A stretch of 34,440 nt of DNA from a virus (lineage: Duplodnaviria; Heunggongvirae; Uroviricota; Caudoviricetes), in the IMG/VR virus record IMGVR_UViG_2531839524_000005; one strand, given 5' to 3'. Below are positions 9,674 through 34,440 of the stretch, one piece after another; position 1 is the stretch's first letter, and every line of letters starts with the position of its first letter. Position numbers and translations under genes: made by a program. Below the pieces are notes generated by a model. That model was given only the letters and a program-made list of their open reading frames with translations. It was not told the DNA's origin and did not search any database.

Positions 9674-11110
9674 ATGGCTGAGATCGAGATTTCTGTAAAT
9701 CTCAGTTCTTCGCTGATGCGCATTCTTGAGGCTGAAGAAATTCAGCCGGGAACCGACATTGGCTATGAACTGTGTAAACTGCTGTGGCAGTACCACCCGC
9801 TGGGCGGGAAACTTGTCGAAAAACCCATACTGATGGCGATGTGTAAGCCGCGCCAGTACAACGTGGAGACAGACCCTGACGAGCGGGTTGTGCGGCGTTT
9901 TCAGGAGGTATGGGAACGTATGAAGGTTAACGAGAAGATTAAAAATCTTTTTTTTCTGTCTCGTTGCTACGGTGCTGCAGCGATCGGCGTGGGCACCGAC
10001 AGTGTTTCATGTCGTGAACCGCTTCCGACGTTCGGACTGACAGAAGAGGATGTGTATATCAACGCGTGGGATCCGTTGAACGCTTCCGGTTCGATGGTGA
10101 CTGACCAGAATCCAAACAGTCCGTTTTTCCAGGAAGCCAATAAAAAGCTGAAGATTGGCGGAAAAGACTGGCATCCGTCACGCACACTAAAAATCTTCAA
10201 CGGCACACCGATTTATCTGGAGTTTCAGAGTTCATCGTTCGGATTCACCGGGCGAAGCGTATTTCAGCGCGTTCTTTATTCCCTGAAATCCTATATCAAT
10301 ACGATGGAGGCGAATGATCTCGTCAGCCAGAAGGCGGGCGTACTGGTAGCTAAAGTTGTGCAGTATGGCTCCAAACTTGACGGGATAATGGCTGCCGCCA
10401 CGGGACGAAAAAGGGAAAACGTCAAAGAGGCAAAAAATAAAGGGGTGCTTAGTATCGGGAAGGATGAGGATGTTACCTCGCTGAATCTACAAAACATCGA
10501 TGGTGCGCTAAACGCTGCACGCGACAATATTATTTCCGATATTGCGTCAGGGAGTGACGTTCCGGCGATCCTCATTAAAGAGGAAGCCTTTTCGAATGGT
10601 TTCGGTGAGGGGATCGAAGATTCGAAAGCCGTCAGCCAGTATATCGATGGTGTACGCCAGCAGATTGAACCTGTGATGGATTATTTCGAACGCCTGGTGC
10701 AGTACATCGCCTGGAACGAGGAATTTTATCAGTCGCTGAAAAATGATTACCCGGACATCATAACCGACGACTATAAAACCACGTTTTACCAGTGGCGACG
10801 TGAATTTACCGCGACGTGGCAGGAGCTGGTGGAGGAGTCGCCGGACAAACGCCGGGAAAGCGACAGTAAAGTGATTCAACAGGCGATAGCACTTTTCTCT
10901 GCCGTGTCGCCACAGGTTGATCCTGAAAACCGTGCCGCCGTCACTGAATGGCTGGCAAGCCTTGTTAATGCCACGCAAACCTATGGCGAAGCTCCACTCA
11001 TCATTGATGTGGACGCGCTGGCAAATTATGAACCACCGAAGCAGGAGACGCCTGATGGCAATTTCCAGCCGGGCGGGGAGGAGGAAGAGACGGATCAGGA
11101 CGCTGTATGA
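9674..11110 (+). CDS. Portal protein (putative)
   Basis: 478-aa protein directly after the terminase large subunit, with an acidic C-terminus; call by position and size. Confidence 0.55.
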   Translation: MAEIEISVNLSSSLMRILEAEEIQPGTDIGYELCKLLWQYHPLGGKLVEKPILMAMCKPRQYNVETDPDERVVRRFQEVWERMKVNEKIKNLFFLSRCYGAAAIGVGTDSVSCREPLPTFGLTEEDVYINAWDPLNASGSMVTDQNPNSPFFQEANKKLKIGGKDWHPSRTLKIFNGTPIYLEFQSSSFGFTGRSVFQRVLYSLKSYINTMEANDLVSQKAGVLVAKVVQYGSKLDGIMAAATGRKRENVKEAKNKGVLSIGKDEDVTSLNLQNIDGALNAARDNIISDIASGSDVPAILIKEEAFSNGFGEGIEDSKAVSQYIDGVRQQIEPVMDYFERLVQYIAWNEEFYQSLKNDYPDIITDDYKTTFYQWRREFTATWQELVEESPDKRRESDSKVIQQAIALFSAVSPQVDPENRAAVTEWLASLVNATQTYGEAPLIIDVDALANYEPPKQETPDGNFQPGGEEEETDQDAV

Positions 11111-32550: not shown

Positions 32551-33066
<516 letters not shown>

Positions 33067-33091
33067 TTAGATCAAAGGAGGAAGAATAAGC

Positions 33092-33118
33092 AGAAAAAGC
33101 CCGCCATAACAGCGGGCA
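33092..33118 (-). terminator. Rho-independent terminator for the porin gene
   Basis: Hairpin gcccgc / gcgggc with an A5 tract on + (T-tract on -), just 3' of the porin stop at 33126. Confidence 0.55.
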
Positions 33119-33125
33119 GGAGGAT

Positions 33126-34097
33126 TTAGAACTGATAAACCAGACCTAAAGCGACAATATCATCGGTAGAGATGCCGTTGGCAGCGTAGAAACTGTCATC
33201 TTCATCCAACAGGTTGATTTTATAGTCAACATAAGTGGACATGTTTTTATTGAAATAGTAAGTCGCGCCAACATCGGCGTATTTAACCAGATCTTTATCA
33301 TCAACACCTGCCGGGTTGTCTGCACCACCGGCAGCGTGCAGGTCACGGCCTTTAGACATCAGGAAAGAGACTGCCGGACGCAGACCAAAATCAAACTGGT
33401 ACTGTGCAGTGACTTCAAAGTTCTGGGTTTTGTTTGCAACAGCATAATCGCTGTCGCCAAACGGGGTCATATTACGCGTTTCTGAATACATGGTTGCCAG
33501 GTAAATATTGTTAGCATCGTATTTTAGCCCAGCAGTCCACGCGTCTGCTTTATCACCACCCGCCGCAGTATGGTTAACCTGGTCATTGGTGCGGTCAGAA
33601 GAGGTGTATGCCGCACCAGCGCTAAAGCCCATGCCTAAATCATATGTTGTGGAAAGACCCCAGCCGTCACCGTTTTCATGGCGAACATCACGTCCGTTGT
33701 TGGTGCCTTCCTGACCATTACTGGCACCTTCGTTGTTACCTTGATACTGCACCGCGAAGTTCAGACCATTTACCAGACCGAAGAAATCAGTATTACGATA
33801 AGTCGCGACGCCATTGGCTCGACCAGTCATAAAGTTGTCTGCATTGGTATAAGAGTCACCGCCAAATTCAGGCAGCATATCGGTCCAGCCTTCGATGTCG
33901 TACATTACGCCATAATTACGTCCGTAATCGAAAGAACCGTAATCTGCAAATTTCAGTCCGGCAAATGCCAGACGGGTCCATGACTGGTTTTTTGAAGATT
34001 CAGTGTTGTTTGCCTGAATATTGTATTCCCATTGACCGTAGCCAGTAAGTTGATCGTTAATTTGGGTTTCGCCTTTAAAACCCAGACGCGCATAGCT
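33126..34097 (-). pseudogene. OmpC/OmpN-family porin gene, 5'-truncated by an IS10 insertion
   Basis: Frame is open from 34097 to the stop at 33126; translation [25 protein letters not shown]...VALGLVYQF matches general porins including the C-terminal signature. About the first 60 codons are missing on this side of the IS. Confidence 0.75.
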
Positions 34098-34440
34098 CTG
34101 ATGAATCCCCTAATGATTTTTATCAAAATCATTAAGTTAAGGTAGATACACATCTTGTCATATGATCAAATGGTTTCGCCAAAAATCAATAATCAGACAA
34201 CAAAATGTGCGAACTCGATATTTTACACGACTCTCTTTACCAATTCTGCCCCGAATTACACTTAAAACGACTCAACAGCTTAACGTTGGCTTGCCACGCC
34301 TTACTTGACTGTAAAACTCTCACTCTTACCGAACTTGGCCGTAACCTGCCAACCAAAGCGAGAACAAAACATAACATCAAACGAATCGACCGATTGTTAG
34401 GTAATCGTCACCTCCACAAAGAGCGACTCGCTGTATACCG
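34098..34440 (+). mobile_element. IS10 (IS4 family), outside end and 5' part, truncated by the window edge
   Basis: Terminal sequence CTGATGAATCCCCTAATGATTTT... and the following ~340 bp match the IS10 outside end as recalled, including the GATC site in the promoter region. A few differences from my recalled IS10-Right suggest an IS10-Left-like copy. Confidence 0.85.
34205..34440 (+). CDS. IS10 transposase, N-terminal part (partial)
   Basis: ATG at 34205; MCELDILHDSLYQFCPELHLKRLNSLTLACHALLDCKTLTLTELGRNLPTKARTKHNIKRIDRLLGNRHLHKERLAVY matches the IS10 transposase N-terminus as recalled. Confidence 0.85.
   Translation, partial: MCELDILHDSLYQFCPELHLKRLNSLTLACHALLDCKTLTLTELGRNLPTKARTKHNIKRIDRLLGNRHLHKERLAVY

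Follow-up and report, generated by a model that had tools for sequence, protein, structure and literature searches.

Results

An ompN fragment and one end of IS10 at the edge of the window

The window (the whole stretch of DNA analysed here) is the complete draft contig AQDR01000071.1 (34,440 nt) of assembly GCA_000355435.2 from Escherichia coli 2845650, and its right-hand end carries most of the porin gene ompN joined to one end of the insertion sequence IS10 (Table 1). On the minus strand, the porin frame stays open from 34097 until its TAA stop (33126-33128), with ...LGLVYQF as the last residues. The region 32900-34100 is identical (1201/1201) to annotated uspF and intact ompN in O26, O103 and O169:H41 strains, and the fragment spans positions 55-368 of the profile for the OmpC subfamily of porins. 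Intact ompN has 377 codons; the 3′ fragment found here is without promoter, start codon and signal peptide, and the first in-frame start within it is Met119.

Table 1. Features at the ompN/IS10 junction (positions in the window)
Feature	Position	Strand	Basis or remark
uspF, normal downstream neighbour of ompN	32551..32985	-	NCBIfam UspF equivalog, 303 bits; annotation in relatives
Terminator-like hairpin just past the ompN stop	33089..33117	-	Pattern scan: stem of 8 pairs, then a run of Ts
ompN 3′ fragment (codons 55-377 and stop)	33126..34097	-	Open frame with YQF end and stop
Target-site duplication, one copy, CGCATAGCT	34089..34097	.	ompN nucleotides 163-171
IS10, Left type: outside end and first 343 of 1329 bp	34098..34440	+	343/343 to IS10-Left of Tn10 in R100
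Terminal ~23 bp of the IS10 outside end, CTGATGAATCCCCTAATGATTTT	34098..34120	+	Sequence read directly
RNA-OUT antisense RNA, from pOUT, directed towards the ompN 3′ fragment	34143..34212	-	Rfam RF00240
IS10 transposase, 5′ part (78 codons + 2 nt), antisense to ompN	34205..34440	+	Translation MCELDILHDS...

The IS10 outside end begins at 34098 with CTGATGAATCCCC..., and the homology to ompN seems to reach 34100 because uninterrupted ompN likewise continues with CTG. The terminal ~23 bp of this end are the site at which the transposase binds and cleaves. The 343 bases of IS10 in the window showed no difference from IS10-Left and 6-7 differences from copies of IS10-Right. The copy matched exactly in R100 (NC_002134) adjoins gltS/jemA, which identifies it as IS10-Left, and it encodes transposase WP_001352368.1, whose annotated start coincides with position 34205 of the window; the Left and Right transposases differ at four residues (I266V, S381L, T389A and V398A). 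RNA-OUT was matched over positions 1-70 of the 70 in its model (97.3 bits; the gathering score is 41). The model for IS4-family transposases gave a partial match (48.7 bits against a cut-off of 152, for the N-terminal 78 codons only). Since RNA-OUT lies on the minus strand and the transposase starts on the plus strand, the transposase gene is antisense to ompN, and pOUT and RNA-OUT point into the 3′ fragment. A promoter consensus scan of 32950-34440 returned no sigma-70-like sites, and pIN and pOUT were therefore placed by RNA-OUT and the established organization of IS10.

The insertion point lies at coding nucleotides 163-171 of ompN, in codons S55-Y56-A57. The IS10 target consensus is NGCTNAGCN as cited in PMC4574204, and the 9 bp next to the outside end match it at five of the six specified positions. 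Scores of at least 5 against this consensus were reached by 2 of 1126 9-mers in ompN and by 132 of 34432 in the window. A sequence-only reading of this DNA had recognized a porin frame of the OmpC/OmpN family running to 34097, an IS10 end a few bases off IS10-Right and perhaps IS10-Left, and a preferred 9-bp target. The open frame with its full identity to annotated intact ompN bears out the first of these; the exact match to IS10-Left of R100 with the full-length RNA-OUT settles the identity of the element, and the counts of 0 against 6-7 differences place it with the Left variant by sequence. The target site is further supported by a second copy of the 9 bp at the other junction.

The other junction lies on the next contig

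The window ends inside IS10 because the draft contig ends there. A lone IS10 and a composite Tn10 predict different products from the 5′ part of ompN, namely 71 amino acids ending ...SYALRDPLIISPKRNHV by read-through into an inside end, and 112 amino acids by read-through into an outside end. An exact look-up found the 71-amino-acid product as EMW21873.1, annotated 'gram-negative porin family protein [Escherichia coli 2845650]'; the homology search, in which this fusion was inside a large cluster, had not listed it. The gene for EMW21873.1 is on the contig that follows in this assembly, AQDR01000072.1, where ompN codons 1-57 with the 9 bp AGCTATGCG (CGCATAGCT read on the opposite strand) are followed by the IS10 inside end. 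The junction reads ...GACCAG AGCTATGCG CTGAGAGATCCCC..., or at greater length ...GATGGCGACCAG AGCTATGCG CTGAGAGATCCCCTCATAATTTCC..., so that the second copy of the target adjoins the inside end. The 343 bases of the inside end showed no difference from IS10-Left and six from IS10-Right. The ompN sequence upstream of the junction is identical to the O169 reference, and the contig continues towards nifJ with full identity to the reference over the 521 nt read, which gives the gene order uspF-ompN-nifJ. Thus, both the inside end and the 9-bp duplication that were to be looked for beyond 34440 are present.

Contigs 71 and 72 each end exactly 343 bases into IS10, with the central 643 bp unassembled. 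This common stop looks like an artefact of the assembler or of scaffold splitting. Since the centre is unassembled, we infer how long the element is, that its transposase is intact and that the two junctions are physically continuous. The frame of ompN is split after codon 57 by IS10, and the 377-codon frame with its signal peptide is absent, which makes ompN a pseudogene in E. coli 2845650; with both junctions read, the inactivation of the porin proposed from the window stands.

The O169:H41 background and a probable source of the element

Positions 1-34100 of the window are collinear without gaps with the chromosomes of enterotoxigenic O169:H41 strains, which differ from it by 11-12 mismatches and have an intact ompN; therefore, IS10 is the only structural difference from them. 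Nine of the differences from two complete O169:H41 genomes are G for T (positions 2705, 3130, 8321, 10444, 21353, 24706, 26520, 29185 and 30264); every one of them lies on the plus strand, and GG precedes seven (GGT to GGG), a pattern that could be a signature of sequencing or consensus error in the draft or a real A:T to C:G (mutT-like) mutation bias. One mismatch makes a 608-amino-acid tail-fibre protein (EMW21953.1) unique. Three mismatches (10372, 10387 and 10444) cluster in a 478-amino-acid gene at 9674-11110 (+) that directly follows the large terminase gene, the usual position of a portal gene, and that is annotated 'anti-CBASS protein Acb1 family protein' in the relatives. Elsewhere in the window, a 391-amino-acid protein at 25114-26289 (+), annotated 'type I restriction endonuclease', has the N-terminal domains of the type I restriction enzyme HsdR and sits in the baseplate/tail module of the prophage, which is an unusual location. 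Tandem genes for tRNA-Thr(TGT) and tRNA-Gly(TCC) at 2312-2465 (+) lie upstream of the prophage lysis cassette, and the left end of the window is near a hokD-like prophage gene.

A complete Tn10 (IS10-Left, gltS/jemA, tetR(B), tet(B), tetC, IS10-Right) interrupts ycjM in two of the O169:H41 relatives, F6326-C1 and F9792. The F6326-C1 transposon has TACTCAGCA duplicated on either side. Its distance from ompN is 89 kb, and its IS10-Left is in the opposite orientation to the ompN copy; in a third relative, F8111-1SC3, the best IS10-Left match is at the equivalent position. The ycjM transposon belongs to the same lineage and has an identical IS10-Left, and it is a probable donor of the ompN copy on this sequence comparison. 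Unlike the lone ompN copy, it is a complete composite transposon of 9.1 kb that includes tetR and tet(B) and is bounded on both sides by an outside end. The ycjM insertion is itself widespread or recurrent, given that the 225-amino-acid truncated YcjM of the ycjM::IS10/Tn10 allele (L015 12001-21147, P0170) occurs on 546 public contigs.

Lone copies are also found in this lineage. The O169:H41 relative 2014EL-1345-2 has a lone Left-type IS10 in tdcD with a 9-bp duplication, and members of the lineage have 2-9 chromosomal IS10 matches; thus, Left-type copies do spread on their own in the lineage. Many other E. coli likewise have lone Left-type copies with 9-bp duplications. In a collection of 5,426 complete E. 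coli genomes, 1142 records had a best match of at least 99% identity to the 343-bp fragment, a band that we took as Left type because IS10-Right is ~98% identical. The Tn10 left junction was present in only 363 records of the same set; therefore, the Left sequence type is no evidence for Tn10.

Recurrent insertion of IS10 at the same ompN codons

In the orientation seen in the window, 14 other contigs have IS10 at this 9-bp site, including three fully resolved lone elements, of which one is of pure Left type, one is of Right type on a GCT target allele and one is a Left/Right mosaic. The opposite orientation is found in strain E9 and in WMHS01000001 (both resolved) and in nine draft contigs of Right type, and a Left-type fusion product in this orientation is encoded on four contigs. 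The same 9 bp are duplicated in E9 and in L043/L044. In the assembly GCA_949767125.1 (CATKJW010000001.1), site and orientation are those of the window and a pure Left-type element of 1329 bp is flanked by the AGCTATGCG duplication. Its background is another one: the 1.5 kb upstream shows 37 differences, and sitABCD, not the prophage, lies beside uspF, which makes the event independent of the insertion in 2845650. E. coli E9 (NZ_CP104500) has the identical 9-bp target CGCATAGCT duplicated and ompN split at the same codons; unlike the window, its element is in the opposite orientation, is of Right-type sequence and encodes transposase WP_001339197.1. The lone element in UWJT01000004.1 (L043 10172-11500) is a Left/Right mosaic, with diagnostic sites RRRRLLLLLRRRRRR, which points to recombination or gene conversion between IS10 copies.

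When the haplotype of the 1.5 kb upstream, the orientation and the IS type were combined, ~10 distinct combinations were found at this site, and therefore about ten independent insertions. These results show that nucleotides 163-171 of ompN are a natural hotspot for IS10. We consider it unlikely that the recurrence has a cause beyond target preference, either selection for loss of OmpN in nature or frequent autonomous transposition of Left-type IS10. A literature search found no paper reporting IS10 at this ompN site, and an exact search for the 35-base ompN/IS10 junction in collections of viral, representative-genome and metagenome contigs gave no match.

Several candidates were set aside. 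Partial OmpN products of 56 amino acids had been considered as contig ends related to the IS; instead of an IS10 junction, the nine ends that were readable have a G/T polymorphism at nucleotide 171 of ompN. A truncated OmpN of 259 amino acids is no marker of IS10, since it occurs in 2422 blocks of the collection owing to many other frameshift and nonsense mutations. The matches in two laboratory strains are unrelated rearrangements. In XL10-Gold (L018 3227-4564), a 445-amino-acid porin annotated OmpC lies beside uspF and is followed by ccp in place of nifJ, which points to an ompN/ompC hybrid formed by rearrangement. In DH5alpha, IS10 lies beside a porin pseudogene that adjoins proAB and that we take to be phoE.

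Discussion

Structure of the insertion

The evidence above makes it very probable that a single 1329-bp Left-type IS10 is inserted in ompN of the enterotoxigenic strain E. coli 2845650, in an O169:H41 background, at CGCATAGCT with duplication of these 9 bp. The outside 343 bp in the window and the inside 343 bp on the partner contig are identical to IS10-Left of R100 (named an IS4-like element of the ISVsa5 family by NCBI), and the ompN copy also resembles it in its RNA-OUT, its transposase start and the 9-bp duplication rule. The R100 copy is an arm of a composite transposon, whereas the copy described here is alone in a chromosomal gene and its middle 643 bp are not in the assembly.

That unassembled middle leaves a small chance, which we rate as slight, that IS10 inserted first and that the junctions are now non-contiguous or enclose more than one IS10, for example if homologous recombination with the oppositely oriented IS10-Left in ycjM caused an inversion, or if two direct IS10 copies flank other DNA. 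The 2-9 chromosomal IS10 matches in the relatives and the inverted Tn10 arm 89 kb away in F6326-C1 would provide partners for such events. Positive evidence for them is lacking, however: both ends are of Left type and carry the same 9-bp duplication, the contig numbers 71 and 72 are consecutive, and the ompN site has a simple structure in the three resolved assemblies.

Even less probable is a composite Tn10 in ompN, with jemA-C, tetR, tet(B), tetC and tetD just past the window. The sequence-only reading had considered this, taking the fragment as a possible Left arm with tetracycline-resistance genes nearby. The identity of the fragment to IS10-Left of Tn10 in R100 and the presence of Tn10 in close relatives are consistent with such an arrangement. 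However, the other ompN junction of the same assembly is an inside end, where Tn10 would have an outside end; the relatives have their Tn10 in ycjM, and its distance from ompN, where measured, is 89 kb; and Left-type ends are far commoner than Tn10 left junctions. The Tn10 module (jemA-C, tetR, tet(B), tetC, tetD) is absent at this junction, and the inside end directly abuts ompN sequence. The combination of an outside end at one junction, an inside end at the other and a direct 9-bp duplication therefore indicates a lone IS10 and not Tn10. Because AQDR01000072.1 joins the 5′ part of ompN to the inside end, the proposal that this copy is an arm of Tn10 falls, and with a lone IS10 bordered by ompN and not by the tet module, the tetracycline genes are not just beyond the window. 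A chimeric assembly join of ompN and IS10 reads without a real insertion can be practically dismissed: the source is a draft short-read assembly and the contig has nine unusual T-to-G differences from its relatives, but the junction falls exactly at the terminal base of IS10 next to a consensus-like target, a reciprocal junction with the 9-bp duplication lies on another contig and many other assemblies use the same ompN site.

A Left-type IS10 thus very probably entered ompN by cut-and-paste transposition at CGCATAGCT and duplicated those 9 bp. It lies with its outside end towards the 3′ part of the gene, its inside end towards the 5′ part and its transposase gene antisense, leaving a null allele of ompN. 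The likely donor would be the IS10-Left arm of the ycjM Tn10 found in three relatives with complete genomes, or another lone copy derived from that arm. The transposase of IS10-Left has been reported as inactive or weak (PMC11148124), and a Left-type copy therefore depends on transposase made by a different copy or on whatever activity its own enzyme retains; presumably, one or the other was enough for Left-type movement.

Consequences for OmpN

The ompN::IS10 allele is null. Its 5′ piece encodes a stub of 71 residues, in which the signal peptide is followed by 36 residues of the mature protein and 14 that are encoded by the IS, and pOUT transcription may run into the 3′ piece. OmpN is a quiescent porin that is barely detectable unless sigma-E is depleted (PMC5745476). 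The gene micC lies upstream of ompN and is transcribed in the opposite direction (PMC5745476), and it should therefore be untouched. Elsewhere, ompN is often a pseudogene, with single-base deletions at several positions and nonsense codons (L005-L014, P0006-P0037), and some of these frameshifts may be errors of long-read assembly. Other ompN products end ...GNDSNLLIVFYVQIMPDDFVMQLHRF, joined after codons 55, 74, 79 and 84; this tail is presumably read-through into an IS1 end.

Since OmpN is quiescent and ompN is often a pseudogene, the expected consequence of its loss is small. The altered phage or antibiotic susceptibility predicted from the window was thus probably overstated, and a marked change is not expected.

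Knockout by IS10 of a normally silent and often decayed porin gene is known biology. For annotation, the value of the finding is that ompN is a pseudogene in 2845650, that one IS10 very probably joins contigs 71 and 72, and that no resistance genes are to be inferred at the ompN locus. What is mildly new is that ompN has a natural hotspot for IS10 and that lone Left-type copies of the element are common; the Left sequence variant should therefore not serve as a marker for Tn10.
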